Shown: positions 40,830-64,000 of the stretch, piece after piece
How positions within the stretch are numbered: position 1 is the stretch's first letter
How the letters are laid out: every line of letters begins with the position of its first letter
Assembly: GCA_041397845.1 (NCBI GenBank)
Contig: JAWKVW010000017.1
Coordinates: 3,503 to 67,502 of the forward strand
Reading direction: 5' to 3'
DNA from: Hyphomicrobiales bacterium
GTDB taxonomy: Bacteria; Pseudomonadota; Alphaproteobacteria; Rhizobiales; JAKPQE01
Length of the DNA stretch: 64,000 bases
Position numbers and translations under genes: made by a program
Notes under the pieces: model-generated
Databases searched by the model: none
What the model was told of the DNA's origin: nothing
What the model saw: only the letters and a program-made list of their open reading frames with translations

Positions 40830-41660
40830 ATGACCACCGCGTTCAACGAACAGAGCCATCTGGCCGAGGCGATCCGCCGGCTCGAGAACACGAGCGATCC
40901 GCGCCTGAAGGAGATCATGGAGGCCTTCAGCCGGCACATGTTCGCCTTCATCAACGAGGTCCGGCCGAGCGAGGCCGAGTGGATGCAGGGCATCGAATTC
41001 CTGACCGACGTCGGCAAGATGTGCGACGACGTGCGCCAGGAATGGATCCTGTTCTCCGACGCTTTCGGCGTCACCATGCTGGTCGACTACCACAACCACC
41101 GTGCCCATGGCGCCGAGACCGAGAGCTCGGTCCTTGGACCCTTCTATCGCGAGGGCGCGCCGGAATATGCGCCGGGCGAGACGATTTCGCAGGACGGCGA
41201 GGGCGATCCCGTCGTGCTCGCCGGCCGCGTTGCCGATGCCGACGGCAAGCCGATCGCCGGCGCCCGGGTCGACATCTGGCAGACCGCGCCGAACGGCCTC
41301 TATGAGGTGCAGGACGCCAGCCAGCCGGAGTTCAACCTGCGCGGCGTTTTCCGCACCGATGCCGAGGGCCGCTATCTCGCCCGAACGGTCAAGCCGGTGA
41401 GCTATCCGATCCCCGATGACGGTCCGGTCGGCAAGCTGCTCGGCGCCGTCGGCCGCCATCCGTTCCGCCCGGCCCATATCCATTTCATCGTCGCTGCGGA
41501 CGGCTACGAGCCGGTCGTCACCCAGCTTTTCACCGACGACGACGCCTATCTCGATTCCGATGCGGTCTTCGGCGTCAAGAACAGCCTCGTCGTCAACTAT
41601 CGGCCGGACGGCGACGGCTATCGGGTCGACTACGACTTCGTCCTGAAGCGGGCTTCCTGA
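40830..41660 (+). CDS. Intradiol ring-cleavage dioxygenase (hydroxyquinol/catechol 1,2-dioxygenase)
   Basis: The motifs YPIPDDGPVGKLL...GRHPFRPAHIHFIV are present. The cluster context (maleylacetate reductase) favours hydroxyquinol as substrate. Confidence 0.85.
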   Translation: MTTAFNEQSHLAEAIRRLENTSDPRLKEIMEAFSRHMFAFINEVRPSEAEWMQGIEFLTDVGKMCDDVRQEWILFSDAFGVTMLVDYHNHRAHGAETESSVLGPFYREGAPEYAPGETISQDGEGDPVVLAGRVADADGKPIAGARVDIWQTAPNGLYEVQDASQPEFNLRGVFRTDAEGRYLARTVKPVSYPIPDDGPVGKLLGAVGRHPFRPAHIHFIVAADGYEPVVTQLFTDDDAYLDSDAVFGVKNSLVVNYRPDGDGYRVDYDFVLKRAS

Positions 41661-42052
41661 TGGCCTATTTCGTCGTCTTTGCAACGGACAGGGACGGCCA
41701 TGGCGCGGTCCGGGCGGCGCACCGCCCGGCCCATCGCGAACGCCTGCGCAGCAACGACCATCCGGTCCGTGTGCTGATTGGCGGCCCGACGCTTGATGCC
41801 GCCGGCGCCATGAACGGCACCATGCTGGTCATCGAGGCCGGCGCGCTCGGCGACGTCGAGACATTCATGGCCGGCGACCCTTATGTCCGGGCCGGGCTGT
41901 ACGGGCGTCTCGAAATCCGGCCCTATGCCTGGGGCCTCGGCGTGCCTTCGAGCCCAGCAGGCGACGGGCCCGCAGGCGACGGGCCTGCAGGCGACGGACC
42001 CGCAGGGGAGGGGCCTGCAGCGGAAGGGCCTGCAGGGGAGAGACGGTCATGA
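41660..42052 (+). CDS. YciI-family protein with a C-terminal (PAGDG)n repeat tail
   Basis: The core is YciI-like (MAYFVVFATDR...MLVIEAGALGDVETFMAGDPYVRAGLY) and is followed by PAGDGPAGDGPAGDGPAGEGPAAEGPAGE. Confidence 0.7.
   Translation: MAYFVVFATDRDGHGAVRAAHRPAHRERLRSNDHPVRVLIGGPTLDAAGAMNGTMLVIEAGALGDVETFMAGDPYVRAGLYGRLEIRPYAWGLGVPSSPAGDGPAGDGPAGDGPAGEGPAAEGPAGERRS
41954..42043 (+). repeat. Six tandem 15-bp units encoding P-A-G-D/E-G
   Basis: The units are ccagcaggcgacggg, cccgcaggcgacggg, cctgcaggcgacgga, cccgcaggggagggg, cctgcagcggaaggg and cctgcaggggagaga. Confidence 0.9.
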
Positions 42053-42438: not shown

Positions 42439-43782
42439 TCAGCGCTCCGAGAAGGCGGTTTCGACGGCGTTGTAGACCGGCTTCAGGATGTAGCGCAGCA
42501 GCGACTTGTCGCCGGTCACGATCTGTCCCTGAACCACCATGCCGGAAAAGATCGGCTTCATCAGCCGGTTCGATTCGATCGCCTCGAGATCGAGCGCGAT
42601 GTCGGCCTTGTAGTAGTAGTCGCCGGTCTGCGGGTTCTGGTAGGTGGTCGGCGACAGCGTCTCGACATTGCCGTAGAGAATGCCGTCGCGCTGCATGTCG
42701 TAGGTCGAAACGATGAGCCGCACCCGGTCGCCCGGCTCGATGTAGCCGATGTCGTTCGGGCGCACCTGCAGTTCGGCGATGAGCTTGCCCTCGACCGGCA
42801 CCATCTCGACGATCGTCTCGCCGGGCCGCACCACGGCGCCCGCTTCCTTCGGCACGATCGAATGGACGATGCCCGCCGCCGGCGCCCGGATGACCAGACG
42901 CTCGACCCGGTCGCCGAGCTTGACGAGGATTTCGCGGTTCTCGGCAAGCTGCGCCTGCGCCTTGGAAATGCTTTCGCCGAGCTGCTGCTCCTCCTTGGCT
43001 CGCGCTTCGGCGAGCACCGCCTCGGCCTCGCGCAGCGCCTCCTCGGCGTTGATCAGGCCGTGAAAGCTCTTCGAGCGCTCGGACTTGAGCTGCAGATAGG
43101 CGCTTTCCGCCGTCAGGACGGAGTTGCGCGAGGCATAGCCCTGATTGGCCAGACGCTTGCGCGTCGCGAACTTGCTTTCCTCCAGCTCGAGCTGGCGATC
43201 GAACGCGGCAAGCTGGTCGCGCATCAGGTCGACTTCGGTCCGCTTCTGCTGCGCCCGGCTTTCAAAGGTCGCAAGCGCCGTCCGCCGGCGCTCCCGCTCG
43301 GCCGCGAGCAGCCGGCCGTGCTCGGCGACGAGATCGGGAAAGGTTGCGGCATATTTCGAGAAATCCGGCTCGGCTTCGGTCCGCACGGCCTCGAGCCGCT
43401 GCACCTCCATGTCGAAGCTGGCGACCCGCGCCTCGATCTGGCCGTTCTCGCCGTTCGCCTGCGCCTCCGCCAGATAGATCAGCGGCTCGCCCTTGGCCAC
43501 GACCTGTCCGGCATGCACCGGGATCGACCGTACGATGCCGCCTTCGAAATGCTGCACCTCGAGGACCGAGCCCTGCGGCACGATCTGGCCCGGCGCCGCG
43601 CTCATTTCCCGGATCGGAATGATGGCCGAAAGCAGGATGGTGCCGAATACGGCAATGCTGAGGACGGAAAGAATGCCCCTCAGGAATTTCAGGCGCACAT
43701 GCCGCTCGACTTCGATGGGAATCCCGAAATAGCGGGGGTCCCCGAAGGAGCGGTCGGCCGACCGGAGCAACGACAGACTCAT
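42439..43782 (-). CDS. Type I secretion membrane fusion protein (HlyD family)
   Basis: 447 aa with an N-terminal TM segment, a long coiled-coil hairpin and beta-barrel/lipoyl segments. It is the last gene of the ABC-ABC-MFP operon. Confidence 0.88.
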   Translation of the reverse strand: MSLSLLRSADRSFGDPRYFGIPIEVERHVRLKFLRGILSVLSIAVFGTILLSAIIPIREMSAAPGQIVPQGSVLEVQHFEGGIVRSIPVHAGQVVAKGEPLIYLAEAQANGENGQIEARVASFDMEVQRLEAVRTEAEPDFSKYAATFPDLVAEHGRLLAAERERRRTALATFESRAQQKRTEVDLMRDQLAAFDRQLELEESKFATRKRLANQGYASRNSVLTAESAYLQLKSERSKSFHGLINAEEALREAEAVLAEARAKEEQQLGESISKAQAQLAENREILVKLGDRVERLVIRAPAAGIVHSIVPKEAGAVVRPGETIVEMVPVEGKLIAELQVRPNDIGYIEPGDRVRLIVSTYDMQRDGILYGNVETLSPTTYQNPQTGDYYYKADIALDLEAIESNRLMKPIFSGMVVQGQIVTGDKSLLRYILKPVYNAVETAFSER

Positions 43783-43844
43783 AACGCAATACCAACTCGT
43801 AACCTGCCGTCCAATAAGACGGCATCAACGTTAAAATTGTCTGA

Positions 43845-46058
43845 TTACGAGGCGTTGCGCGCTTTTGTCCGGATCTCGCCGATGACCTGGTCCGGCGTGC
43901 CGTCCGCCGCGATCGCACCCTGGTTGAGCAGGATCGCCCGGTCGCACAGCACCATGTGGCTCGGCCGGTTGGTCACCATGATGACCGTGGCGTTTTCCTT
44001 CAGATAGGCGAAGGTGGCCCGGAAACGCTCTTCCGCCGGCCCGTCGATGAAGGTGCCCGGCTCGTCGAGAAGGTAGACCGGCGCCTCGCGCGCCACCGCC
44101 CGGGCAAGGGCGATCTGCTGGCGAAGGCCGTTCGGCAGCGCCGCCCATTCGTCGCCGGTCAGGCGCGTGTCGAGCCCTTGCGAAAAATAGCCGCCATGCT
44201 CGGCGATGCCGACGAGGTCGAGCGCATGGCTGAGCCTTGCCGGCTCGACCGCCGGCGCCCCGAGCGTGAGGTTGTCGCGCAAGCTGCCGTGAATGAACTG
44301 GAGATATTGCGGCACATAGCCGATCGTCCGGCGCAGCACGCGCGGCTCGATCTGGCGCAGGTCGACGCCGTCGATGAGCACATTGCCCGACTGCGTGTGC
44401 CAGAGGCCGAGACAGACCTTCAGGAGCGTCGACTTGCCGGACGAACTCGGCCCGGCGATCGCCAGCGACTGGCCAGGCTGGATGTCTATGGTGATGCCGC
44501 GCAGCGCGATGTTCGTGGCCCGTGGATAGCGCAGGCTCACATTGACGAGCGAATAGCCGAGCGGCTCGCGCCGCGTCTGCGTTCCCTTGGCCGTTCCCGC
44601 CGCCTCCGGCTCGAGCCGCATCATGGCGTTGATCTGCCGCACGATCCGCGCGAACTGCACGATCCGGTCCGTCGCCAGCAGCGCGATCTGGATCGGCGAC
44701 AGCAGCCGCCAGACGATCATCATCGAGGCAATGAGCCCGCCCGACGACAGCGTGCCGTCCATCACCCGGCCGGCGCCGATGACGAGGGTGAGGACGCCGG
44801 CCATCATCACCAGCATCTGGGCGAATGTGTTCAGCGCGAAATTGTAGAGCGACGAGCGGTAGCGCGCCTGCAGCGCGTCGCGCAGACGGAACGAGTAGCG
44901 CGTCCGCCAGGCATCGACCGCCGCATTCTCGCGAATGAGCTGGCGCAGATCGAGGCTCTCGAACTGGAACGCCTGCAGCCGGTTACCGGTAAGGCCGGTT
45001 TCGTCCGAGGCCCGCGACATCGGCAGGTTGGCGAGCGCGACGAGCGCCGAAAGCGCCGCGATGAGGATCACCGGGATGAAGGCGAGCGAGCCGCCCATCA
45101 CGATCATCGCGATGAGGAAGACCAGCGTGAACGGCACGTCGAAGGCCGTCGAGGCAAGCTGTCCGGCAAAGAAGTCCTTGACGTTGCTGAACTGCTTCAG
45201 CCGCGCGATCTGCGAGGAGATCGGCGCCGACTGGGTCATCGACAGCGGCAGGTCGAGCAGCTTGGCGAAGGTCGCGGTCGAGATCGCCGTCACGAAATGC
45301 GCCCCGGCATGGGCGACGATTTGCGAGCGCTGCCGCTTGAAATAGATCTCGAGGCCGACGACGATCGCGCCGACCGCGAACATGTACACGATTGTATCAA
45401 CCGACTGCGTCGGGATCATGTAGTTGTACATCATCATGACGTAGATCGGCACGAACAGCCCGAGCACGTTGATGACGAACGACAGCAGGATGATGGCCGA
45501 ATAGGACGTCGACTTGGCGGCAAGGGCGCTGAGATACCAGTTCTTCTTCCACTGCGGGTCCTGCGTTTCAGGATCGATCGCAAGGAAGGAATAGGCGGTG
45601 ATCGTCCGCCGGCCGGGGTTGACCGCCCGCGGCTGTCCGCCGTCTGCCGTGCCCCGGATGAGATAGGCGCCGCGCTCGTTCTGCCCGGTGATGACGACCG
45701 GCTCGCCGGTATCGAGCACCGCGAATGCCGGAAAGGCCCGCCGCTCGTTCGGCGCCGCCGAGAAGTTTCGCTCGATGCATCGATAGCCGAGATGGTGCAT
45801 GACCGCGAGCAGTTGCGCGGTCGTGTCCATGCGATCGAGATAGGGCATCAGCTCGGCGAGCTGGTGCTCCGTCCCCGACCAGTCGAGCGCCCGCAGCAGG
45901 TCGCGCAGCGCCGTCTCGAACGGGCTGGCGTCGGCCGGTTCGGAAAGCGTCGTGCCGCCGCCGCCGAATGCCGACTGCAGGTTGGCCCGGAACGCATGCA
46001 CCGGGTTCGGCTGGAGAGCCTTGCCCGGCAGTGGTCCCTTGTCCGCCGTCGCGCTCAT
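43845..46058 (-). CDS. T1SS ABC transporter with an N-terminal C39-like domain (HlyB-like); divergent signature and H-loop
   Basis: 737 aa. The ~150-aa N-terminal domain shows no CG-type catalytic Cys motif. A TMD follows. Walker A is GPSSSGKST and Walker B is VYLLDEP, but the signature position reads LPNGL and the H-loop reads VTNRPS. Confidence 0.85.
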   Translation of the reverse strand: MSATADKGPLPGKALQPNPVHAFRANLQSAFGGGGTTLSEPADASPFETALRDLLRALDWSGTEHQLAELMPYLDRMDTTAQLLAVMHHLGYRCIERNFSAAPNERRAFPAFAVLDTGEPVVITGQNERGAYLIRGTADGGQPRAVNPGRRTITAYSFLAIDPETQDPQWKKNWYLSALAAKSTSYSAIILLSFVINVLGLFVPIYVMMMYNYMIPTQSVDTIVYMFAVGAIVVGLEIYFKRQRSQIVAHAGAHFVTAISTATFAKLLDLPLSMTQSAPISSQIARLKQFSNVKDFFAGQLASTAFDVPFTLVFLIAMIVMGGSLAFIPVILIAALSALVALANLPMSRASDETGLTGNRLQAFQFESLDLRQLIRENAAVDAWRTRYSFRLRDALQARYRSSLYNFALNTFAQMLVMMAGVLTLVIGAGRVMDGTLSSGGLIASMMIVWRLLSPIQIALLATDRIVQFARIVRQINAMMRLEPEAAGTAKGTQTRREPLGYSLVNVSLRYPRATNIALRGITIDIQPGQSLAIAGPSSSGKSTLLKVCLGLWHTQSGNVLIDGVDLRQIEPRVLRRTIGYVPQYLQFIHGSLRDNLTLGAPAVEPARLSHALDLVGIAEHGGYFSQGLDTRLTGDEWAALPNGLRQQIALARAVAREAPVYLLDEPGTFIDGPAEERFRATFAYLKENATVIMVTNRPSHMVLCDRAILLNQGAIAADGTPDQVIGEIRTKARNAS

Positions 46059-47827
46059 GCCGCCCCCCCGAAGCTTGCCGCGGGCGCAGTGGCGAAGGCG
46101 GGCGGATCGGCGGTTCGTCCGGGTGGCGCGGCGTCGCGCGCCGGCGCCAGGCTGCCCGCCTCGATGCGCACGAGCTGGTCGGCAAGGGCGAAGTAGGACG
46201 GCCGGCTCGTCGCGATGATGATTGTCGCTTCACCGCGAAGGCTGGCGAGATAGCGGATCAGCGCCTCGTCGGCGGCCTGGTCGAGATAGGTCTGCGGCTC
46301 GTCGAGAATGACGAGTTTCGGCAGCCGCATCAGCGCCCGCGTCAGCACCACCTGCTTCAGCACGCCGGCCGGCAGCAGGTTGCCCGAACCGTCCCGGAGC
46401 GGCGTCTCGTAGCCGAGCGGCAGCAGCGCGACGCGCTCGTCGAGAAGGAGGAGCTGGGCGACCTCGCCGGCTTCCTCGGCGATGTTGACGTGGCCGCCAA
46501 GGGTCAGGTTGTCGACGATCGAGCCGTTGAAGAACGACAGGTCGCGCGACACGAAGGCAAGGTCGGCGTAGGGCGCGGCGCCATCGTGCCGCAGCGTCTC
46601 GCCGGCAACGAGGATGCGGCCCTCCTCGACGGTCTCAAGGCCGGCGAGCGAGCGAAGGATGTGCGTGCCGGCGGCGCCGGCATTGGCAATGACGAGACAT
46701 TCGCCCGGGGCAATCTGGAGGTCGAGACGGACGGCCGCGTCGCCGCCATGCGGCGTGACCGCCGCCGCAGCGCGGATCTCCGGTGCCGCGGACCAGTGCA
46801 CCGCCTCGATCGTGGTCTCGCCGACCGGCGGCAGATCGAGCGCCGGCTGCAGCATCTGCCGCGCCGCCTCGGCCGCCTGCACGTCGTTCGAGATCGAGAT
46901 GACCCTGCTTGCCGACTGCATCATCCGCCCGGTGAGCAGGCTGCAGCAGGCGACTGCGCCGGTCGAGATGTGACCTTCGGCGGCGAGCAGGCCGCCGAGC
47001 GTCAGGACGCCGAGCGTCGCCATCGAGCCGAGCGTCGAGGTCATCACGAATGCCCGGTCCGACGCCTTGATGAGCTCGTAGAGGATCGGTCCGGTGGTCT
47101 TCTGCAGCCGCTCGTGCCGCCGCTTGATGACCTCTTCGGCACCGAGGCTCTTGATCGTCTCGATGTTGCGCAGGATCTCGGTCAGGAAGTCGTTCGTCCG
47201 CACCTCGGATTCGTCGCGCTTGCGGTATTGCGCGAACAGCCGTTTGCCGGCCATGCTCACCGAGATGCCATAGGCCGCGATGATGCCAACCGGCGCCAGC
47301 ACGACAACGCCGCCGATCATCGCCATCAGCACCACGTTGATGATCATGAACGGCAGGTCGACGAGGGCGAGGCGCGACTGGCTGCTGTAATATTCGGCGA
47401 TCTTCTGGACCGCGTTCAGGCTGTCATTGCGCTCGCTGAGCTTCTGGAAGCCGCCCTCGTGCACCAGCAGCCGGGAATAGCACTCGTTCGAGACCGAAAG
47501 GGCAAAGGCCATGGCGCCATAGCCCATGATCGCATAGCGCGCGATCTTCAGGACGGCCTCGAGCAGGAAGACGACGGCGAGCATGACGAGGAACATCGTC
47601 AGCGTCGAACTGGCCTGGTTCGGAATGACGCGATCATAGATCTGCAGGACGACGAGCGGCATGGCGAGGCCGAGCAGGTTGATCGCCAGGCTTGACATCA
47701 ACACCGACTTCCGCGGCTTCAGGAAATCCTGCGCGGTCCGGCGCGGCGCGACGGCAGGCGCAGCGGCGCCAAACGCCGTCGCCTTGCGGCTCCCTGCCCG
47801 ACCAATGCCCATCGTTGTTCCCGCCAA
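46055..47827 (-). CDS. Second T1SS-type ABC protein (PrtD-like TMD) with a degenerate nucleotide-binding domain
   Basis: 590 aa with a T1SS-type TMD (LQIYDRVIPN). The Walker A position reads NAGAAGTH (no Lys), the signature position reads LPAGV and the H-loop reads ATSRPS. Walker B LVILDEP is retained. The stop overlaps the next ABC gene's start (ATGA). The exact start is uncertain (MGIG... or later). Confidence 0.8.
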   Translation of the reverse strand: MAGTTMGIGRAGSRKATAFGAAAPAVAPRRTAQDFLKPRKSVLMSSLAINLLGLAMPLVVLQIYDRVIPNQASSTLTMFLVMLAVVFLLEAVLKIARYAIMGYGAMAFALSVSNECYSRLLVHEGGFQKLSERNDSLNAVQKIAEYYSSQSRLALVDLPFMIINVVLMAMIGGVVVLAPVGIIAAYGISVSMAGKRLFAQYRKRDESEVRTNDFLTEILRNIETIKSLGAEEVIKRRHERLQKTTGPILYELIKASDRAFVMTSTLGSMATLGVLTLGGLLAAEGHISTGAVACCSLLTGRMMQSASRVISISNDVQAAEAARQMLQPALDLPPVGETTIEAVHWSAAPEIRAAAAVTPHGGDAAVRLDLQIAPGECLVIANAGAAGTHILRSLAGLETVEEGRILVAGETLRHDGAAPYADLAFVSRDLSFFNGSIVDNLTLGGHVNIAEEAGEVAQLLLLDERVALLPLGYETPLRDGSGNLLPAGVLKQVVLTRALMRLPKLVILDEPQTYLDQAADEALIRYLASLRGEATIIIATSRPSYFALADQLVRIEAGSLAPARDAAPPGRTADPPAFATAPAASFGGAA

Positions 47828-47979
47828 GATCCCAAGTACCCAGCCGAATTTACGAACGGTGGGTTAACTAATTGGAAATCACGTTCGCCGCGCCGGCGGG
47901 TGCTTAAGAATCTGTACAGCAACGCCCGATAAGGTTCGGAACGGATCCGAATCGAAGCCGTTTTTCCGGCGGAATTGAC

Positions 47980-50900
47980 ATGAATTATCAGGGCGATTTC
48001 CTGAAGCCAAAATCAAATATTACAATCGACGATATACTCGCGAATCCCGACGCGAACGAAACAAAACAGAAACATATCAATTCGATAGTCAACGTACAGC
48101 CTGAATATTCGGTTGTGCGTTATGATATCGTCAATCCACTGCTTTATCTGGACTTCAAGGGTGTCGGAATTCTAACGTCGGCAATAGCATTCGGCCGATT
48201 GCTGTTTCAGGGAACTGATGCTTATACATATCCCGTCGAGAATATCGAGGCGATCATTGCTGCCGCCGGCGGTGATGGCATCGACCGCCTGTCGGCCCGG
48301 CAGGGTTGGCTCGACGCGCCGCTGGTCGAGGAAGAGGCCGTTTATTCCAGCGGCAATGACGACCTCTCCGTCTGGCAGGGCGCCGATTTCCGGGCGGGCG
48401 AGACATTCGGTCACGGCGCCCATCGTCCGGTTGATGCCGCTGGCGACCTGACGCGCGCGCACCGCCTGCCGGTCGATGCGCCCGTCCCCGGCGCCGCCGC
48501 AAGGATTGGCACGACGCCGGCCGTCGCCGTCGACGAAGTGGCAGAAGACGATCGGCCGGACGCCCCGCAGGGTCCGCAGCCCGCCGACATGGCGCCGCTC
48601 GATATTCGCCTCGACGCCGGCGCGCTTGCCGAGGGAGTGGCCGCCGGAACGGTCGTCGGCCGGCTCTCGACACTCGACGAGGACGGTGCCGACAGCTTCC
48701 GCTATCAGCTTCTGGCCACGTCGACACCGGGCTTTGCCGTCGTCGGCGACCAGATCGTCGTCGTCGACCCGACGGTCGTCGATTTCGAGGCAATCACCGA
48801 ACTCGTCTTCAATGTGCGGGTGACCGATCGCTTCGGCCACACCCTGACGAAGTCCTTCACCGTGGCGGTCGAGGACGTCAATGAACGTCCGACCGATATC
48901 GTCCTTGCCGGCGGCGGGGTCGACGAGAATGCGATTGCCGGGACGGTCGTCGCGACGCTTTCAGCGGTCGACGAGGACGCCGGCGAGACGTTCAGCTACG
49001 CGATCACGGCCGATCCCTCCGGCTATTTCGAAATCATCGGCAACGAGATCCGGGTGAAGGCCGGCGCATCGCTCGACTTCGAGGCCGCGACCAGCCACGA
49101 CGTCACCGTCCGCGTGACGGATGCCGGCGGCAACAGCTACGACAAGACGTTCACGCTTTCTGTCGCCGACACGGCCGAAAACCTCGTCCTGACCGCCGGC
49201 GACGACATCTTTGCCGATTCCGGCGTGACGGAACTCTCCGTCGACGGCGGCGCCGGCAATGACACGCTGATGGGTGGTCTTGGCGACGACACGCTGCTTG
49301 GCGGCCTCGGTGACGATGTTCTCGATGGCGGCGCCGGCGACAACGAGCTGCATGGCGGCGCCGGCAACGACACCCTGATCGGAACGGTGCCGGGCGACGT
49401 CCTTTATGGCGACGACGGCAACGATACCTTCCTCGTCACCGGTGCGGCGACGATCTCCGGCGGCGATGGCCTCGACGTCATCCTCGGCAGCATCGGCGAC
49501 GATATCTTCGCCCTGCTCGACAATACGATCGAGATGATCGACGGCGGCGCCGGCGTCGACACAGTCGCAGGTACCGGCGGCGATGATGTCATCGACCTCG
49601 CCGGAACGCTGCTGAACGGCGTCGAGCTCATCGATGCCGGGGCGGGCGATGACACGATCATCGGCAGTGCCGGCTCGGACACCATCGAGGGTGGTGCGGG
49701 CAGCGACCATGTCGTCCTGTCCGGCAACTGGTCGGACTATACGATCAGCCATGACGGCGCGACGGGGGCGTATACGCTCGTCGACAACCGCGCCGGCTCG
49801 CCGGACGGCTCTGACGTCATCTCCGGCGTCGAGGTTTTCGAATTCGCCGACCGCACGATCACCGTCGCCGACCCGGCCGATCTGCTCAATGATGCCCCGA
49901 CCGACATCACTGCGACCGGGCCGCTCGCTGTCGACGAAACCCTCGCGAATGGCGGCACCATTGCGCCGGCGTTCGATCCTGCCGGAACCGTGGTCGCGAC
50001 CCTTGGCGTCGTCGACGCCGATGGCGGCGACAGCCACACCTATGCCCTTGCCGAAACCCGCGATGCCGGCGGCTTCGTCGTTGCCGACGGACCGTTCGAG
50101 GTGTTCGAGGACGCTGGCGGCGACTGGATGGTCCGCGTCAAGGCCGGCGCGACGCTCGACTACGAGACGTCGTCGCAATACGCCCTCGACGTCACCGTCA
50201 CCGATGCGGCCGGCGCCAGCTACACCAGGACGCTGACCATCGCCATCAATGACGTGATGGGCACCTATGCCGGCTCGACCGGCGCCGACACCCTGACGGG
50301 CACGTCCGAGGAAGACGAAATCTCGACCGGTGACGGCAACGACGTCATCAATGGCTCGGTCGGCGCCGATACGATCGACGGCGGCGCCGGCGTCGATACC
50401 GTTTCCTACAGCAGCGGCTCCGACGACATCACCGTCGACCTTGCCGCCGGTACCGGCACGGGCGGCCTTGCCGACGGCGACACCTACCGGAATGTCGAGC
50501 GGGTCGTCGGCGGCGCCGGCAATGACACGCTGATCGCCTCCGATGTCGACAGCGGCTACTTCTGGGGCCGGGCGGGCGACGATTCCCTTCTCGGCGGCGC
50601 AGCCGACGACTACCTCTACGGCGGCGATGGTGCCGACACCATCGACGGCGGCAACGGATCGGACTGGGCCCGCTATGGCGATGGCACCGACAGCGTCACC
50701 GTCGATCTCAACGCCGCGACCCAGAGCGGCGGCTTTGCCGAGGGCGACAGGCTCATCGACATCGAGAATGTCGAGGGCAGCCGCGGCAACGACGTCCTCA
50801 CCGGCGATGCCGGCGACAACCGGTTCATGGGCTATGACGGCGCCGACACCATTTCCGGCGGTGCCGGCGATGACGTCCTGCAGGGCTGGGGCTGGTGGAG

Positions 50901-53900
50901 CGGCCAGGGCGAGGGCGTCGATGGCGACGACGTCCTGTCCGGCGGCGACGGCAACGACGTCCTGGAAGGCCAGTTCGGCAACGACACGCTCTCGGGTGAT
51001 GCCGGCAACGACACGCTGACCGGCGGCATGGGCGCCGATCTCGTCGATGGCGGCGCCGGCACCGACACGGCGGTCTTCGCCGGCAATCGCGCCGACTATG
51101 TCATCGGCTATGACGCGGCGACCGACACCTACACGATCGCCGACACGGTCATTGACCGCGATGGCACCGACACGGTCGTCAATGTCGAGAACTTCCAGTT
51201 CGCCGACGGCACCTTCACGGCAGCGACACTGCTCAACGCCATAACCGGCACGGCCGGAAACGACACGCTGACCGGCACCGGCGGCTCCGACATCATCAGC
51301 GGCGGCGCCGGCAACGACACCATCGACGGCGGCGGCGCCGACGATGCGCTCGTGATGACCGGCGCGATCGCCGATTACGACCTCGTCGACAATGGCGACG
51401 GCAGCTTCACCATCACCGATCTGCGCGCCGGCAGCCCGGACGGTAGCGACACCTTCAGCAACATCGAATTCCTGCGATTTGCCGACGTGACCGTCGCGGT
51501 CTCGAGCCTCGTCCTTGGCACGGCCGGCAATGATACGCTCGACGGCACGGCCGGCGCCGACGTCATGTTCGGCAATGGCGGAACGGACAATCTCAACGGC
51601 AGCGAGGGCGCCGATATCCTCATCGGCGGTTCTGGCACGGATTTCGTCCGCTACACCGCCGACACGACCGGCGTCACCATCGATCTGTCGACCGGCACAG
51701 GTTCCGGCGGCCTTGCCGAGGGCGACACCTATTTCGGCATCGAGCGCGCCGTTGGCGGCCTCGCCGACGATCTCCTCATCGGCGACGGCGATGACAACAT
51801 CCTCTATGGCCGCGTCGGCGACGACACCATCGACGGCGGCGCCGGCAACGACAGCCTGTTCGGCGATGGCGGCAACGACGTCGTGTCCGGCGGCGCCGGC
51901 GGCGACCAGATCACCGGCGGTGATGGTGCCGATACGCTCGATGGCGGCGACGGTGCCGACTATCTGAAATATGACAGCGACAGCATCGGCGTGACCATCG
52001 ACCTCGGTGCCGGCACCGCGTCCGGCGGCGAGGCCGAAGGCGACGTCATCTCGAACTTCGAGCATGTCGCCGGCGGCTCCGGCAACGACGTCATCACCGG
52101 CGACGCTGGCGCCAACAGTCTGCTCGGCCGGGCCGGTGACGATGTCCTGTCCGGCGGCGGCGGCAACGACACGCTGCTTGGCGAGGTCGGCAACGACACC
52201 CTTTATGGCGATGACGGCGACGATTCCCTGACCGGCGGCTCGGGCGACGACATCATTGATGGCGGCACGGGCACCGACACCGTCCGCTTCACCGGCGCCC
52301 GCGCCGACTATGTCATCACCTATGACAGCGCCACCGGCACCTACACCATCGCCGACACGGTCGCCGGCCGCGACGGCACCGACACGGTCGTCAATGTCGA
52401 GAACTTCCAGTTCTCCGATGGCACCCTGTCGGCGGCGGCGGTTCTCAATTCCATCGACGGCACGGCCGGCGACGACACGCTGACCGGCACCGACGGCACC
52501 GACATCATCAATGGCGATGCCGGCAACGACACCATCGACGCCGGCGCGGGCGCCGATACGGTCACCGGCGGCGCCGGCAACGACGTCATCGAGGGCGGCG
52601 CCGGCACCGACACGCTCATTCTCTCCGGCAACGCCGCCGACTACGACATCACCGGCGATCCGGCCGGCACGATGGTCATCACCGACCTGCGCGCCGGTTC
52701 GCCCGACGGCACGGACACCGTGTCCGGATTCGAGTTCATCACGTTCGCCGACCGCACCATCGCCGTCGCCGATATCCTTATCGGCACCGACAACGCCGAT
52801 ACGCTTGTCGGTTCCGATGCGGCCAATCTCATCTATGGCCTCGACGACGTCGACGGCAACGACATCCTCAAGGGTGGCGCCGGCGACGACGTCATCATGG
52901 GTGGCGCCGGCATCGACATCATTGCCGGCGGCAGCGGCGCCGACACGCTCGACGGCGGTACGGGCTCCGACTATCTCGACTATCGCGACTCCACGGCCGG
53001 CGTCACCGTCGACATCGCCAGCCAGACGGTGTCCGGTGGCGATGCAGAGGGCGATGTCGTCTCCAATTTTGAAAACGTCTATGGCTCGGATTCTGCGGAC
53101 ACGCTGACCGGCGATGACAGCCGCAACGTCCTTCATGGCTTTGACGGCAACGACACGATCTTCGGCGCCGGCGGTGACGACATTCTGCATGGCCGGGACG
53201 GTGCCGACACCATCGACGGCGGCGATGGCGCCGATACCGCCTCCTACAACTACTCGACGGCCGGCGTCACCGTGAACCTTGCGACCGGCACGGGCAGTGG
53301 CGGCGAGGCCGAGGGCGATGTCCTCTACAATATCGAGAACGTCCGCGGCTCGAACCACGATGACGTCATCACCGGTGATGCCGGTGCCAACACGCTGACC
53401 GCCGAGGACGGCGACGACACCATCGACGGCGGCGGCGGCAACGACATCGTCGATGGCGGGGCCGGCACCGACACCCTCGTCCTGTCCGGCAACTGGTCCG
53501 ACTACGAGATCACCTATGCCTCGGGAACCGGCGCCTACACGTTGACCGACCGGCGCGCCGGCTCGCCGGATGGCACCGACACGGTCACCGGTGTCGAGAT
53601 CTTCCAGTTCGCCGACCGCTCCATCACCGTCACCGACCCGGCCGACCTGCTGAACGAGGCGCCGACGGATCTCGCCTTCACGGGCGGCTCCGCCGACGAG
53701 AATGCCGCGAACGGCACGCTGGTCGCGACCGCCACCGCGACTGATGGCGATGCCGGCGACGTCCTGACCTACAGCCTCCTCGACGATGCCGGCGGCGCAT
53801 TCGCGATCGATGGAACGACCGGCGCGATCACCGTCGCCGATGCAACGAAGCTCGACTACGAAACCGCCGCGACCATGGACATTGTCGTCCGCGTCACCGA

Positions 53901-56109
53901 TGCCGGCGGCCTCACCCATGACGAGACGGTGACGATTTCGCTCGCCGATCTCGACGAGTTCGACGTGACGACGCCCGTCGATGCTGATGCGGCGGCGAAT
54001 GTCGTTGCCGAAAATGCCGCCGGCGGCACCACGGTCGGCATCACCGCAAGCGCCGCCGATGCCGACGGCACGACCAGCGCGGTCACCTATTCCCTCGTCG
54101 ACGCGGTGGGTGATCCGGTCGTCGGCGGACCGTTCGTCATCGATGCCGCGACCGGCGTCGTCACCGTCGCCGACGGCGCCGTGCTCGACTATGAGGCCGC
54201 GGCCAGCCACACCGTCTATGTCAAGGCGGCGAGCGCCGATGGCTCCTCGGCAACCGAGACCTTCACGGTCAATCTGTCCGACGTCAACGAAACGGCTGTC
54301 TCCGCGGTTTCCGACAGCGCAGCGGCGGCAAACGCGGTCGACGAGAACGCCACTGTCGGCAGCCTCGTCGGCATCACCGCGCTGGCGAGTGACGCCGACG
54401 GCACCGATACCGTCACCTACGCCCTGACCGATGATGCCGGCGGCCGCTTTGCCATCGATGCAACGACCGGTGTCGTCACCGTTGCTGGCAGTCTCGATGC
54501 CGAGACGGCGCTGTCCCACGTCATCGAGGTCACCGCCACCTCGACCGATGGTTCGACCTCGGTCGCGACCTTCACCATCGCCGTCAACGACCTCAACGAG
54601 ACCGCGATCAGCGCGATCTCCGACGCCGACGCGACTTCCGGTCCAGTCGCCGAATCCGCCGCGATCGGCAGCGCCGTCGGCATCACCGCCTATGCGGGCG
54701 ATCTCGACGCCACCGCGACCGTCACCTACAGCCTCACGTCAAACCAGGGCGGCTTCTTTGCCATCGACGCCAATACCGGCGTCGTCACCCTTGCCGGAGC
54801 GCTCGACTACGAAACCGCCCAGAGCCACACCATCACGGTCACCGCAACTTCGTCCGATGGCTCGACCTCGACGCGCAGCTTCACCATCGACGTCGGCGAC
54901 GTCGCCGAGACGATCACCGGCACCGCCGGCAACGACGTTCTCTCCGGCACCATCGGCCAGGACGTCATGCTCGGCCTTGCCGGCAACGACACGCTGGTCG
55001 CCAGCGCCGCCGCCGACAGCCTCGATGGCGGCGACGGCATTGATACCGCCGACTATTCGGCCTCGGCGACCGGCGTCACCATCGACCTTGCAAGCGGAAC
55101 TGGCTCGGGCGGCGATGCGGCCGGCGACACGCTGACCGCGATCGAGAACGTCGTCGGCTCGAACACCGGCGCCGATGCGATCACTGGCGACGGCAACACC
55201 AATTCCCTCGAGGGCGGCGGCGGCAACGACACCATCGACGGCGGCGCCGGCGCCGATACGATCGATGGCGGCGACGGCAACGACGTTCTCTATGGCGGCG
55301 CCAACACGACGGGTGCCGACCAGATTCATGGCGGCGCCGGTGACGACACCATCGACGGCGGCACCGGGCTGAACTGGATCTGGACCGGCTCGGGCGCCGA
55401 CACCGTCGTCAATGGCGGCGGCAACGACATCCTGATCTACGAGGATTCGGACGCTGCCGTGACCGTCGACCTCACCGCCAACACCGCGTCCGGCGGCTAT
55501 GCCGAGGGCGACGTTTTTGGCGACAGCGTCTATGGCGTCAACGGCTCGGCCTTCGACGACGTGCTGACCGGCGATGCCGGCGGCAACTGGCTGCGCGGCC
55601 TTGCCGGCGACGACACCATCTTCGGCCTCGATGGCGGCGACACCATTCGCGGCGAGGCCGGCAACGACACCATCGACGGCGGCGCCGGCACCGATACGGT
55701 GTCTTTCTCGGGCAACTTCACCGACTATCTCATCCGGCGCAGCGGCGACAGCCTCATCGTCACCGACCAGCGCCCCGGCTCGCCCGATGGCACCGACACG
55801 CTTCTCAATGTCGAGACGCTGCAGTTCGCCGACGGCGCCGTCAGCGTCATCCTCGATGCCGACGGCGGCACCCTGATGGCCGGCGACGGCCGCAGCATCA
55901 TCCTCGGTGGCGTCGGCATCGATACCGACAAGAACATCGTCTACGACGAGGGCGGCGACGACCTCATCCTGCTGCAGGACGGCCGCAACGTCGTCTACAC
56001 CGGCGCCGGCAACGACACCGTCATCGGCGGTGCCGTCGGCACCGACCACATTTACGGTTCCGCCGGCGCCGACTGGTACGACGGCGGCGGCGGCCCAACG
56101 CCCATATGA
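47980..56109 (+). CDS. Giant secreted RTX/cadherin-like repeat protein, 5' segment (2709 codons, ends at a TGA inside a frame-disturbed patch)
   Basis: It contains many GGxGxDxUx nonapeptide runs (GGAGNDTLMGGLGDDTLLGGLGDDVLDGGAGDNEL...). Cadherin-like repeats have DENxxxG/DxDxG/NExPTD linkers. A ~50-aa module ...DY.ITYD..TGTYT..D.R.GSPDGTDT....E.F.FAD recurs. The gene is divergent from the T1SS operon. Confidence 0.9.
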   Translation: MNYQGDFLKPKSNITIDDILANPDANETKQKHINSIVNVQPEYSVVRYDIVNPLLYLDFKGVGILTSAIAFGRLLFQGTDAYTYPVENIEAIIAAAGGDGIDRLSARQGWLDAPLVEEEAVYSSGNDDLSVWQGADFRAGETFGHGAHRPVDAAGDLTRAHRLPVDAPVPGAAARIGTTPAVAVDEVAEDDRPDAPQGPQPADMAPLDIRLDAGALAEGVAAGTVVGRLSTLDEDGADSFRYQLLATSTPGFAVVGDQIVVVDPTVVDFEAITELVFNVRVTDRFGHTLTKSFTVAVEDVNERPTDIVLAGGGVDENAIAGTVVATLSAVDEDAGETFSYAITADPSGYFEIIGNEIRVKAGASLDFEAATSHDVTVRVTDAGGNSYDKTFTLSVADTAENLVLTAGDDIFADSGVTELSVDGGAGNDTLMGGLGDDTLLGGLGDDVLDGGAGDNELHGGAGNDTLIGTVPGDVLYGDDGNDTFLVTGAATISGGDGLDVILGSIGDDIFALLDNTIEMIDGGAGVDTVAGTGGDDVIDLAGTLLNGVELIDAGAGDDTIIGSAGSDTIEGGAGSDHVVLSGNWSDYTISHDGATGAYTLVDNRAGSPDGSDVISGVEVFEFADRTITVADPADLLNDAPTDITATGPLAVDETLANGGTIAPAFDPAGTVVATLGVVDADGGDSHTYALAETRDAGGFVVADGPFEVFEDAGGDWMVRVKAGATLDYETSSQYALDVTVTDAAGASYTRTLTIAINDVMGTYAGSTGADTLTGTSEEDEISTGDGNDVINGSVGADTIDGGAGVDTVSYSSGSDDITVDLAAGTGTGGLADGDTYRNVERVVGGAGNDTLIASDVDSGYFWGRAGDDSLLGGAADDYLYGGDGADTIDGGNGSDWARYGDGTDSVTVDLNAATQSGGFAEGDRLIDIENVEGSRGNDVLTGDAGDNRFMGYDGADTISGGAGDDVLQGWGWWSGQGEGVDGDDVLSGGDGNDVLEGQFGNDTLSGDAGNDTLTGGMGADLVDGGAGTDTAVFAGNRADYVIGYDAATDTYTIADTVIDRDGTDTVVNVENFQFADGTFTAATLLNAITGTAGNDTLTGTGGSDIISGGAGNDTIDGGGADDALVMTGAIADYDLVDNGDGSFTITDLRAGSPDGSDTFSNIEFLRFADVTVAVSSLVLGTAGNDTLDGTAGADVMFGNGGTDNLNGSEGADILIGGSGTDFVRYTADTTGVTIDLSTGTGSGGLAEGDTYFGIERAVGGLADDLLIGDGDDNILYGRVGDDTIDGGAGNDSLFGDGGNDVVSGGAGGDQITGGDGADTLDGGDGADYLKYDSDSIGVTIDLGAGTASGGEAEGDVISNFEHVAGGSGNDVITGDAGANSLLGRAGDDVLSGGGGNDTLLGEVGNDTLYGDDGDDSLTGGSGDDIIDGGTGTDTVRFTGARADYVITYDSATGTYTIADTVAGRDGTDTVVNVENFQFSDGTLSAAAVLNSIDGTAGDDTLTGTDGTDIINGDAGNDTIDAGAGADTVTGGAGNDVIEGGAGTDTLILSGNAADYDITGDPAGTMVITDLRAGSPDGTDTVSGFEFITFADRTIAVADILIGTDNADTLVGSDAANLIYGLDDVDGNDILKGGAGDDVIMGGAGIDIIAGGSGADTLDGGTGSDYLDYRDSTAGVTVDIASQTVSGGDAEGDVVSNFENVYGSDSADTLTGDDSRNVLHGFDGNDTIFGAGGDDILHGRDGADTIDGGDGADTASYNYSTAGVTVNLATGTGSGGEAEGDVLYNIENVRGSNHDDVITGDAGANTLTAEDGDDTIDGGGGNDIVDGGAGTDTLVLSGNWSDYEITYASGTGAYTLTDRRAGSPDGTDTVTGVEIFQFADRSITVTDPADLLNEAPTDLAFTGGSADENAANGTLVATATATDGDAGDVLTYSLLDDAGGAFAIDGTTGAITVADATKLDYETAATMDIVVRVTDAGGLTHDETVTISLADLDEFDVTTPVDADAAANVVAENAAGGTTVGITASAADADGTTSAVTYSLVDAVGDPVVGGPFVIDAATGVVTVADGAVLDYEAAASHTVYVKAASADGSSATETFTVNLSDVNETAVSAVSDSAAAANAVDENATVGSLVGITALASDADGTDTVTYALTDDAGGRFAIDATTGVVTVAGSLDAETALSHVIEVTATSTDGSTSVATFTIAVNDLNETAISAISDADATSGPVAESAAIGSAVGITAYAGDLDATATVTYSLTSNQGGFFAIDANTGVVTLAGALDYETAQSHTITVTATSSDGSTSTRSFTIDVGDVAETITGTAGNDVLSGTIGQDVMLGLAGNDTLVASAAADSLDGGDGIDTADYSASATGVTIDLASGTGSGGDAAGDTLTAIENVVGSNTGADAITGDGNTNSLEGGGGNDTIDGGAGADTIDGGDGNDVLYGGANTTGADQIHGGAGDDTIDGGTGLNWIWTGSGADTVVNGGGNDILIYEDSDAAVTVDLTANTASGGYAEGDVFGDSVYGVNGSAFDDVLTGDAGGNWLRGLAGDDTIFGLDGGDTIRGEAGNDTIDGGAGTDTVSFSGNFTDYLIRRSGDSLIVTDQRPGSPDGTDTLLNVETLQFADGAVSVILDADGGTLMAGDGRSIILGGVGIDTDKNIVYDEGGDDLILLQDGRNVVYTGAGNDTVIGGAVGTDHIYGSAGADWYDGGGGPTPI

Positions 56110-56510
56110 TCTGCTAGCTCATCGGCGACCGGCGTGACCGTCGACCTGACGACCGGCGCTGCCTCGGGCGGCGACGCCGAGGGCGATACCCTCATCGACA
56201 TCGCCGCGGTCAGCGGCTCCGATACGCCGACGTTCTCACCGGCACCTGGGTCGGCGGCGAAGGCGGCAGCGACCTGATCGCCGGCACGGACGGCGATGAG
56301 CGTGTACCTGATGGGCGGCGGCGGCAACGACACCATCGATGGCGGCACCGGCGCCGACACCGCATGGTTCACCGGCAACTGGTCCGACTACGCCGTCACC
56401 TATGACGGCGGCACGGATACCTACACCGTCACCGACCGCCGTGCCGGATCGCCAGACGGCGTCGATGTCATCAGAAATGTCGAGTTCTTCCACTTTGCCG
56501 ATGGCACTGT
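56110..56510 (+). other. Frame-disturbed patch joining the two halves of the giant gene
   Basis: Coding-like sequence hops frames 1>2>1>3>1>3. The segments are YDLLAH (frame 2), SSATGVTVDLTTGAASGGDAEGDTLIDIAAVSGSD (frame 1), YADVLTGTWVGGEGGSDLIAGTDGDERV (frame 3) and YLMGGGGNDTIDGG...FHFADGTV (frame 1), followed by SAADVLNDAPTD (frame 3). Confidence 0.8.
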
Positions 56511-62500: not shown

Positions 62501-64000
62501 TGCCGGCGGCGGCAACGACACGATCACCGGCGGCGCCGGCAACGACACCATCGACGGCGGTGCGGTAACCGGCGCCTCGACGGCTCTTGCCCTGGCGGCC
62601 GGCGACGATTCCGTCCATCTCGACGGCCTCGGCGTCGACACCGCCGATGGTGCCAGCAACACCGTCGAGTTCTGGATGAACTGGGACGGCGGCGAGAACC
62701 AGGTGCCCTTCGGCTTCGGCTGGTACACGCTGTGGTTCTACAATGGCAGCTTCGGCTTCAGCACCGGCGCGACCGATATCTACGGCATCGATTCCAGCAG
62801 CCTCGTCGGGAGCTGGCATCATGTCTCGGCGGTTTTCGTCAATGGCGACGTCGCGGCGAGCAAGCTCTACATCGACGGTGTCGAGCAGAACCTCTCCCAG
62901 CTCATGGGCTCGCCCAACGACGGTTCGGCCGTCGCCACGACTGACGCCCGCATTTCCGGCAAGACCACTTTTACCGGCAACAAGTTCGGCGGCGACATCG
63001 CCGAGGTGCGCATCTGGAACGACGAGCGCACCGCCGCGGAAATCGCCGACACCTATGACGAACACCTGACCCAGGGCGACGGTCTCGTCGCCGCCTACGA
63101 CTTCGAGAACATGACCGATGGCACCGACGGCGTCATCGACATCTCTGGCAATGGCGCCGACGGCACTCTCGTCGGCATCACCGCGACGACCGTGACGACC
63201 GGCCCGACCCTGACCGATCCGGGCAACGACGTCGCCGTCTTCAGCGGCAACCGCGCCGACTACACCATCACCTACGACGCCGGCACCGACACCTACACCA
63301 TCGTCGACAACCGCGCCGGCTCGCCGGACGGCACCGACACCGTGACCGGCATCGAGACCTTCCAGTTCGCCGACAGCATCGTCGATGCGACCGCGCCGGC
63401 GGCCGTCATCAACCTCGCCCCGACCGATATTTCATTCACGGCAGGCGTCTCCGGTGCACCCGAGGTCGCAACGGTGACCGGAGCGGACCCGGAAGGGGAC
63501 ACGCTTTCCTATTCGCTGGTCGATGATGCCGGCGGGCTCTTCACCATCGACGCCGCGACCGGGCGGCTCAGCTATTCCGGCTCTCTCGATCCGGCGGCGG
63601 TCGAAGCGCACGACATCACCATCCGGGTGAGCGACCCGCACGGCGCCACCTATGATGAAGTGATGACCGTGACGGTCGGCACCTCCGGCGACGACAATAT
63701 CGTCGGCACGGCGCGCGACGACCTGATCCTTGGCGGCGACGGCTACGACACCATCACCGGCGGCGCCGGCGATGATATGATCGTCCGCGACGTCGGCGAC
63801 GCCACCGACCCGCTGTTCGACATCGGCATCGTCTCGCGTGGCTATGACGTCGCGGCAGGCGGTTCGTTCATCAACCTGAACGGCACATCCTACCAGACGT
63901 CGCGCGGCTATCAGATCATGGTGATCGACGAGAGCGGCAACCTCGTCGCCCGCCAGCAGTTCGACCCCTATGCCAGCGCCGCCAACGCCACGGCCATGGC
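56511..64000 (+). CDS. Giant secreted RTX/cadherin/LamG/propeller-repeat protein, 3' segment (frame 3, open to the window end; absent from the ORF track because no stop lies in the window)
   Basis: Hand translation gives a continuous open frame. It contains cadherin-like repeats and three LamG/ConA-like lectin regions (about 56905-57400, 60826-61335 and 62585-63055, e.g. GTIQSVRVWNTALAAGEV, GTIYEVRIFDDVRTAQEIADN, GDIAEVRIWNDERTAAEIADTY). It also contains RTX blocks and about 14 tandem propeller-like repeats. Confidence 0.85.
58224..60495 (+). repeat. About 14 tandem ~50-58-aa repeats (coding) inside the giant gene, beta-propeller-blade-like
   Basis: The recurrent pattern is [LV]..L.DGG[FY]VV.W.S...DG...G[IV]...R[FY]...G...G.EF.VN......Q..P. 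Example: ITALSDGSYVVVWHSYAQDGDNYGIFGQRFAADGSKLGSEFQINEVIASSQQNPS. Confidence 0.8.

Follow-up and report, generated by a model that had tools for sequence, protein, structure and literature searches.

The 64,000-nt window of DNA analyzed here (contig JAWKVW010000017.1 of the Hyphomicrobiales bacterium assembly GCA_041397845.1; all coordinates are positions in this window) carries a type I secretion system (T1SS) cassette that encodes two unlike ATP-binding cassette (ABC) half-transporters, a short one (referred to as S) and a long one (L), together with a HlyD-family periplasmic adaptor, next to a gene for a giant RTX/cadherin-repeat protein on the opposite strand. Comparative analysis makes it likely that S and L constitute an obligate heterodimer that serves as a T1SS engine and most likely exports the adjacent giant protein, and the motifs of the two nucleotide-binding domains (NBDs) support well the view that such a heterodimer would have at most one working ATP site. 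In the HlyB model of type I secretion, the ABC protein is a homodimer with two canonical ATP sites, and its H-loop His and Walker B Glu residues are indispensable. Judged by its genes and motifs, the system described here combines a T1SS with a degenerate-site heterodimeric ABC transporter and appears to form a lineage separate from the MARTX systems.

The minus strand carries the three genes in tandem, in the order S-L-HlyD (Table 1). The S protein consists of a transmembrane domain (TMD) and an NBD (Pfam domains ABC_membrane, residues 44 to 300, and ABC_tran, residues 368 to 512), and L contains the same Pfam transmembrane region and ATPase domain. On the minus strand, the S/L junction reads GCGGCATGAGCGCG (GCGGCATGAGCG), where the S stop codon TGA and the L start codon ATG overlap as ATGA; the open reading frames (ORFs) and this junction are as described in the original prediction, made from the sequence alone, of an operon coding for a 590-aa ABC protein, a 737-aa ABC protein, and HlyD. 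The HlyD protein matches Pfam HlyD_3 and, with 301.9 bits, exceeds the cut-off (208.65) of TIGR01843, a curated model for T1SS adaptors, and the GC content is level throughout the region.

The register of the ATPase motifs was established for L from phmmer alignments to P-glycoprotein-type exporters with solved structures, for S from phmmer alignments to Aquifex PrtD and PCAT1, and for both NBDs from a MAFFT alignment with HlyB of enterohemorrhagic Escherichia coli and RtxE of Vibrio vulnificus (genes taken from annotated plasmids); all three checks give one agreed register. Where HlyB has the Walker A motif GRSGSGKST, Q-loop VVLQEN, signature LSGGQ, Walker B IFDEAT, D-loop SALD, and H-loop IAHRLS, L has GPSSSGKST, YVPQYL, LPNGL, LLDEPG, TFID, and VTNRPS, and S has NAGAAG-TH, FVSRDL, LPAGV, ILDEPQ, TYLD, and ATSRPS, respectively. 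Thus, L retains the P-loop residues Lys542 and Ser543, the Q-loop Gln584, the Walker B pair Asp665-Glu666, and the D-loop Asp. In S, the intact elements are the Walker B motif (ILDEP) and the D-loop, and the other ATP-contacting motifs are lost; the degeneration of its Walker A is shared with its orthologue in a metagenome locus (L006), which reads NPGAAG-TL. The non-canonical motifs that the original prediction had listed for S (no Walker A Lys, LPAGV, ATSRPS) and for L (LPNGL and VTNRPS beside an intact GPSSSGKST and Walker B) are therefore real, although they are not peculiar to this window, the signature and the RPS-type H-loop being traits of a large family.

One ATP site of an ABC dimer is composed of the Walker A and B motifs and the Q- and H-loops from one NBD together with the other NBD's signature (PMC7756269). 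Given this rule and the motif losses in S, the S-centred site of an S-L dimer would be dead, which leaves as the candidate ATP site the one centred on L and completed by LPAGV of S. The Asn in the H-loop of L need not be disabling, since ABCC1 mutants with Asn or Gln in place of the H-loop His of site 2 show wild-type-like transport (PMC7756269). From the motifs, turnover at the L-centred site could be either slow or normal.

Evidence for the pairing of S with L comes primarily from their relatives. A scan of one genome per GTDB species with an S-specific motif gave at least 591 confirmed relatives, and the best 80 of these provided the locus counts given here (n = 80 for S and n = 75 for L); in addition, the best 150 cluster representatives (the weakest scoring 564 bits) were taken from a profile search of 1.84 billion representative proteins. 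The two subunits differ markedly in their ATPase motifs: the Walker A pattern GxxxxGK[ST] is found in L at 75 of 75 loci, whereas the position of the Walker A Lys in S is occupied by Lys in 47 proteins, by Arg in 29, and by other residues in 4, and a fully canonical Walker A is found in S at only 39 of 80 loci. The Q-loop Gln is retained in 33 of 80 S proteins versus 51 of 75 L proteins. LSGGQ is absent from both subunits in all the family loci aligned, the usual signature being [LIVM]-Pro/Ser/Thr-x-Gly/Ser-hydrophobic. Positions 3 and 5 of this signature are highly variable in S and L alike, and positions 1, 2, and 4 have an entropy of 1.0 to 1.2 bits in S versus 1.6 to 2.1 bits in L. A tighter signature in S would be expected if it serves the always-intact Walker A of L, and the overall asymmetry of the motifs is the pattern expected if S is the degenerate NBD of a heterodimer.

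Of the 150 best representatives, 24 are natural S-L fusions, single chains of 1257 to 1437 aa with S as the N-terminal half and L, N-terminal domain included, as the C-terminal half. An example is the 1378-aa protein WP_244442643.1, encoded on plasmid AZO_p3 of Azospirillum lipoferum 4B (NC_016623.1, 319798-323934; locus L087, 10129-14265), whose gene is followed by one for HlyD and faces the gene for a 5193-aa Ig-like protein; matches of the same kind come from three further Azospirillum plasmids. Among the genome loci, fusions are represented by a 1299-aa ORF in Rhodospirillaceae bacterium LM-1 (L029) and by a 1331-aa version. In a neighbor-joining tree built from 597 columns (100 bootstrap replicates with Poisson distances), S and L form separate clades, each recovered in 100/100 bootstraps, with mirrored internal branching; both clades stand apart from HlyB/RtxB/RtxE and from the sampled LapB/LssB-like ABC proteins. 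The motif asymmetry, the fusions, the conserved S-L order, and purifying selection on S (see below) all support the original proposal of a heterodimeric engine with at most one competent ATP site.

It is unlikely, by comparison, that L works as an ordinary homodimer and that S forms separate, catalytically inert homodimers, possibly filling the non-translocating positions of a HlyB/D-like assembly. In the paper behind PDB entries 7SGR and 8DCK, only one of the three HlyB dimers of the HlyB/D complex is reportedly proposed to engage the substrate; L has every ATP-binding element and resembles HlyB over its full length, and a structural role is conceivable for S, with its missing P-loop Lys. However, an L-L site would pair the Walker A motif with the poor signature LPNGL, and the lower variability of the S signature at residues 1, 2, and 4 fits a role of S in serving the Walker A of L. 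Moreover, in the fusions S and L are held at a 1:1 ratio within one chain, as intramolecular heterodimers usually are, and the Bradyrhizobium-type loci described below have S proteins that keep the Glu and His residues where L lacks both, so that the two NBDs look complementary.

That S is a decaying, functionless duplicate upstream of the real pump gene is very unlikely, even though its ATP motifs other than Walker B and the D-loop have been lost and its NBD evolves faster than that of L. Comparison of the window genes with the 70%-identical orthologue (dS of ∼0.6) gave, for S, dN/dS ratios of 0.375 overall, 0.22 for the TMD, and 0.51 for the NBD; for L, 0.374, 0.29, and 0.34, respectively; and for HlyD, 0.22 overall. 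As dS is probably underestimated in this GC-rich genome, these ratios are upper bounds. The overall ratio of S equals that of L, its TMD is the most constrained of these domains, and its ORF has stayed intact in the window and the orthologue alike over a divergence of ∼0.6 synonymous changes per site. In addition, the S clade is old, is represented in all related loci, and is kept as the N-terminal half of the fusions. From this pattern, S appears to be maintained by purifying selection, with a somewhat relaxed NBD; the overall ratio of 0.375 and the conservation across the family speak against its being a remnant, an outcome that the original prediction had itself considered.

The N-terminal part of L also resembles that of known T1SS ABC proteins. 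The LssB model covers L residues 46 to 731 at model positions 2 to 694, the N-terminal domain included. The Pfam domain Peptidase_C39 (PF03412) was not detected in the L protein of the window and has a weak match (E value of 0.003) in the Magnetospirillum orthologue. A profile built from 28 N-termini of the family matched, among PDB entries, the C39-like domain of HlyB (3ZUA, E value of 0.31) and full-length HlyB, with E values of 0.3 to 0.7 that are weak but with the alignments in register. The AlphaFold2 model of L, built from a 56-sequence alignment, has a mean pLDDT of 82.7; the PDB structure it matches best is the HlyB chain (691 residues) of the HlyB/D complex, over 689 columns and with TM scores of 0.76/0.81, followed by PCAT1 with its peptidase domain (712 to 717 columns), and it also aligns structurally with the chains of TM287/288 and TmrAB. 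The sole Cys among L residues 1 to 180, Cys94, lies outside the first helix of the domain (residues 46 to 57). Together with the LssB alignment and the weak 3ZUA match, this model supports the earlier description of the L N-terminus as a C39-like domain devoid of an obvious catalytic Cys.

The gene that encodes the presumed cargo starts 152 bp from S on the opposite strand. Its first open frame codes for 28 stretches of RTX nonapeptides (PF00353, 524 bits) and six cadherin domains. This frame ends at a stop codon at 56107-56109, and RTX-like coding resumes in other frames (56278-56613 and from 56406 to the window end), the continuation containing cadherin, laminin-G/ConA-like, and RTX domains; altogether, the gene exceeds 5,300 codons, with its C-terminus beyond the window. 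The frame breaks at 56100-56620 reflect either assembly errors in a repetitive metagenome-assembled genome (MAG) or a genuinely disrupted gene. A giant gene rich in Asp, Thr, Gly, and Asn codons is located directly upstream of S in ∼37 of the ∼50 loci with enough upstream sequence. These giant genes start within a few hundred bases of S, mostly on the opposite strand, and several of them exceed 3,200 codons and extend past the fetched DNA. Many of their products have Ig/cadherin-type repeats in common with the window protein, from approximately residue 200; those annotated include the 5193-aa Azospirillum protein mentioned above and a 2599-aa PA14-domain protein encoded on a 65-kb Phaeobacter plasmid. 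The dedication of the S-L-HlyD cassette to the adjacent giant protein, as originally proposed, is accordingly well supported for this window by synteny, but such adjacency is not universal in the family.

Table 1. Coordinates of the secretion cassette, its ATPase motifs, and the divergent giant gene in the 64,000-nt window
Feature	Position	Strand	Remarks
S, short ABC half-transporter (TMD and NBD, no N-terminal domain)	46055-47827	-	590 aa from TTG 47827
L, long ABC half-transporter (C39-like domain, TMD, and NBD)	43845-46058	-	737 aa
HlyD-family type I secretion periplasmic adaptor	42439-43782	-	447 aa; TIGR01843, HlyD_3
S, degenerate Walker A NAGAAG-TH	46661-46684	-	First Gly replaced by Asn; Lys position deleted (one-residue deletion)
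S, Q-loop FVSRDL (Gln to Arg)	46538-46555	-	HMM and MAFFT alignments
S, signature position LPAGV	46361-46375	-	Would complete the ATP site built on L Walker A
S, H-loop ATSRPS (His to Ser)	46196-46213	-	HMM and MAFFT alignments
L, C39-like N-terminal domain, ∼residues 45-165	45564-45926	-	No Cys in first helix
L, canonical Walker A GPSSSGKST, residues 536-544	44427-44453	-	Lys invariant in 75/75 family members
L, signature position LPNGL	44124-44138	-	Would face the dead S Walker A
L, Walker B VYLLDEP (Asp-Glu intact), D-loop TFID, and H-loop VTNRPS (His to Asn)	43959-44078	-	Alignments
Intergenic region separating S from the divergent giant gene	47828-47979	.	152 bp; presumed control region
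Giant RTX/cadherin-repeat protein, first open frame (presumed cargo)	47980-56109	+	2709 aa
Giant gene continuation in other reading frames	56110-64000	+	Frame open from 56406 up to the end of the window (≥2531 codons)

With respect to gene boundaries, the true start of S is likely the ATG at 47812 (585 aa), which fits best the N-terminus of the orthologue. The NCBI call (547 aa, from Met44; the region concerned is 47698-47827) is probably too short, because residues 30 to 43 are conserved in the orthologue, which has Leu at the position of Met44. A promoter scan of the intergenic region between S and the giant gene found no sigma-70-like consensus. Beyond the HlyD gene, positions 41660-42052 contain a 130-aa ORF that looks YciI-like by eye and ends in a tandem PAGDG/PAGEG pentapeptide repeat; its neighbors, judged likewise by eye, look like aromatic-degradation genes, with an intradiol dioxygenase-like ORF and a thiolase-like ORF.

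The closest relative of the window pair among the matches listed is the L006 locus on a 7-kb metagenome contig, where S is 70 to 72% and L is 67% identical and the S-L-HlyD trio is also present. This order was found in essentially every one of the best 80 loci that was long enough to judge, as well as in four metagenome loci, with S/L junctions that are usually overlapping or abutting; downstream of each of the more distant S-like proteins (∼570 aa) lie the genes for an L-like protein (∼720 aa) and HlyD. Nearly all of the best 80 loci belong to Alphaproteobacteria; Roseibium, Magnetospirillum, and Algihabitans are represented by isolates, and the MAGs include Bradyrhizobium and Marinicaulis. 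In the NCBI annotation of a Hyphomicrobiales MAG to which the window is 100% identical, S and L carry generic domain names alone, and RefSeq names their relatives “ABC transporter transmembrane domain-containing protein” or “ATP-binding cassette domain-containing protein.” No Magnetospirillum, Roseibium, or Phaeobacter member of the family clears any NCBIfam cut-off on its own, and no curated NCBIfam model naming the family was found. Full-text literature searches found no paper on it, but most subscription journals were outside their coverage, so that a prior description is possible. The S-L family is widespread and apparently unnamed.

A gammaproteobacterial locus on the Vibrio coralliilyticus plasmid pSNUTY2 (CP020456.1; L089, 5376-14070) encodes a distantly S/L-like ABC pair of 528 and 712 aa, preceded by genes for hemolysin D, a 743-aa “response regulator,” and a 474-aa ORF. 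This pair occupies a basal position relative to the S and L clades, and its short subunit keeps the Walker A motif and has lost most of the others.

Among curated profiles, the T1SS ABC models (LssB, then PrtD and HlyB) are the top-scoring ones for both S and L, although all scores are below the cut-offs. For TIGR03375 (LssB), TIGR01842, and TIGR01846 (cut-offs of 693, 510, and 726 bits), S scores 260, 200, and 142 bits and L scores 423, 254, and 253 bits, respectively. LssB/LapB-type systems share with the window the domain order of L (C39-like domain, TMD, and NBD) and the class of cargo, giant RTX-repeat adhesin-like proteins. However, the known systems of this type are homodimeric, with a single ABC gene instead of two, and the sampled LapB-like sequences keep LSGGQ and, in most cases, also the H-loop His, whereas S and L never have LSGGQ; the window proteins fall far below the TIGR03375 cut-off, as do family members from Magnetospirillum, Roseibium, and Phaeobacter.

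The original prediction, which placed heterodimeric ABC exporters with one degenerate site in other families, needs correction insofar as a two-ABC T1SS is already known in the MARTX RtxB/RtxD/RtxE system (PMC3034196). Secretion of the MARTX toxins of Vibrio by this atypical, four-component T1SS depends on RtxB, RtxD, RtxE, and TolC; neither ABC protein is dispensable, and RtxB and RtxE have been suggested to pair as a heterodimer (Boardman and Satchell 2004, summarized in PMC3034196 and PMC4316617). The MARTX and window systems have in common two unlike ABC proteins and a divergent gene for a giant RTX-type cargo, and the TolC of the former is encoded elsewhere. Unlike the ABC-ABC-adaptor order of the window, the order on plasmid pR99 (NC_009701) is rtxB-rtxD-rtxE, i.e., ABC-adaptor-ABC. 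RtxB and RtxE are both ∼700 aa long and both Group 2 transporters (PMC4316617), whereas S lacks the N-terminal domain; those of V. vulnificus have fully canonical motifs (GxSGSGKST, the Q-loop, LSGGQ, DEAT, and AHR), in contrast to the degenerate ones of S and L. Finally, RtxB and RtxE cluster with HlyB (100/100 bootstraps), outside the S and L clades. Gene order, motifs, and phylogeny thus reject membership of the window pair in the RtxB/RtxE group, and the canonical motifs of RtxB and RtxE and their clustering with HlyB indicate that the two-ABC state arose independently in the S-L family.

The best functional analogy to S and L is provided by the degenerate-site heterodimeric exporters (TM287/288, TmrAB, BmrCD, and TAP1/2, with Pdr5 and ABCG5/G8 as extreme cases), whose two dissimilar halves come from neighboring genes or from a single fused one and whose substitutions are concentrated in one composite site. 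Both the Lys-to-Arg change in the Walker A of ABCG5/G8 and the complete degeneration of Pdr5 site 1 (PMC7756269) have counterparts in the S clade. However, these exporters keep a fully consensus second site, whereas the better site of the window pair lacks both LSGGQ and the H-loop His. The classical degenerate sites still bind ATP, whereas in S the Lys is deleted and ATP binding at this position is doubtful. With the exception of TmrAB, listed as a T1SS in one review (PMC8277102), these exporters have not been described with a HlyD adaptor, nor has any of them been described as exporting giant proteins.

An NHLP-type system for the export of peptides or bacteriocins, unrelated to the giant neighbor, would show the same outline layout: two-ABC loci of this kind are documented (PMC6959600; models TIGR03796, TIGR03797, and TIGR03794), and, like the window, the set of NHLM_micro_ABC1, ABC2, and HlyD includes one ABC protein with a C39-type domain, one without it, and a HlyD protein. 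Such an identity is highly improbable here. Against the TIGR03796 and TIGR03797 models (cut-offs of 853 and 709 bits), L scores 208 and 183 bits and S scores 116 and 106 bits, well below their scores with the T1SS models, and the HlyD protein, which passes the T1SS adaptor model, reaches 44.7 bits with the NHLP model TIGR03794 (cut-off of 156.2 bits). The window proteins fall far short of all three curated cut-offs, a catalytic Cys is missing from the L domain, and the S-L loci show strong synteny with genes for giant repeat proteins rather than leader-peptide precursors, so membership in the NHLP group was rejected.

Least of all could the odd motifs be an alignment artefact that hides canonical proteins: the HMM alignments (PrtD, PCAT1, and P-glycoprotein) and the MAFFT alignment (HlyB and RtxE) agree and the GxxGxG...LL, DEP, xxLD, and RPS elements are in place, so the mis-registration that the original prediction had allowed for was rejected and the motifs stand.

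In the proposed mechanism, the S-L heterodimer and HlyD would form the inner-membrane part of the T1SS. L would supply the C39-like domain for docking of the cargo and the only usable P-loop, and S would supply the second transmembrane half and an NBD that may no longer bind or hydrolyze ATP on its own. The predicted dead site would be made up of the Walker A, Q-loop, and H-loop of S and LPNGL of L, with no Lys, Gln, or His, and the predicted working site of the Walker A, Q-loop, and Walker B of L and LPAGV of S, with Asn in place of His and Pro in place of the signature Ser. Any ATP turnover would then take place at a single non-canonical site. The HlyD adaptor would connect to a TolC-type channel encoded elsewhere, and the most likely exported protein would be the Ca2+-binding RTX/cadherin giant.

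Several points weigh against this reading. The case for a heterodimer is one of comparative genomics: that S physically pairs with L, that ATP is used at the L-centred site, and that the giant protein is the cargo are all inferred. The presumed working site is itself non-canonical (LPAGV and the H-loop Asn) and, by the HlyB paradigm, could be inactive; Zaitseva et al. (2005) reportedly found the H-loop His to be essential in HlyB. The cargo gene is interrupted in its frame, and its C-terminal signal region lies beyond the window. About one-fourth of the assessable loci, mainly those of Magnetospirillum and related Rhodospirillales, lack an adjacent giant gene. There is no TolC gene in the tested part of the window: 10 candidate ORFs of suitable size gave no match to the TolC/OEP family, belonging to other families or to none, in a scan that was not exhaustive over the window. 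In many T1SSs, tolC is found at a distant locus. Finally, other subclades split the defects over both sites, so that a model with one good site does not fit the whole family, and in the Phaeobacter piscinae pair neither NBD has a recognizable Walker A Lys, Q-loop Gln, Walker B acidic pair, or H-loop His.

In the Bradyrhizobium-type loci (L026, L035, L046, L075, and L078), S has Arg in place of the Walker A Lys and keeps the Glu and His residues, whereas L keeps the Lys and has Glu replaced by Asn, Gln by Glu, and His by Phe. In the Roseibium loci (L022, L030, L031, L034, L042, L044, and L062), S combines the Lys-to-Arg replacement with Asp-Asp, and L has Asp-Asp or Asp-Asn and Tyr in place of the His. 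Neither ATP site is canonical in these two groups. The P. piscinae P36 operon for S, L, and HlyD, located on plasmid pP36_f (NZ_CP010649.1, 54871-59992; L088, 6337-11458) beside the gene for the 2599-aa PA14-domain protein, looks like a type I-like pump without any recognizable ATP site. By analogy with HlyB, the Bradyrhizobium, Roseibium, and Phaeobacter pairs should not hydrolyze ATP, and these subclades may have a different catalytic arrangement or a very slow turnover, or hydrolysis may be dispensable for their cargos. By its motifs, the window pair is one of the cleaner designs in the family, with one apparently dead and one near-complete site.

A broader possibility, although a rather unlikely one, is that the S-L family is a T1SS engine in which ATP hydrolysis by the ABC proteins is minor or dispensable. 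It is suggested by the consistent lack of LSGGQ, by the fact that the Lys-bearing subunit has often lost its catalytic Glu or its H-loop His, and by the Phaeobacter pair with no catalytic motifs in either NBD. If this were true and such systems still secrete, export of RTX/Ig-repeat proteins several thousand residues long would be driven mainly from the outside, the candidate forces being Ca2+-dependent repeat folding as a ratchet and the proton-motive force, and the two NBDs would then act as no more than a latch, either gated by nucleotide or purely structural.

More generally, the S-L family would represent a natural lineage that departs from the HlyB model, with an asymmetric, sometimes fused two-gene ABC component, no LSGGQ, and a graded loss of catalytic residues. 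The generic NCBI names and the lack of a model that these proteins pass make the S-L system and its link to giant adhesin-like proteins invisible in current annotation. The lineage occurs in the genomes of at least several hundred species, among them the culturable Azospirillum, Magnetospirillum, Roseibium, and Phaeobacter, and may offer a natural series of “mutants” bearing on how much ATP turnover is needed for the export of giant proteins and on the role of the degenerate site.

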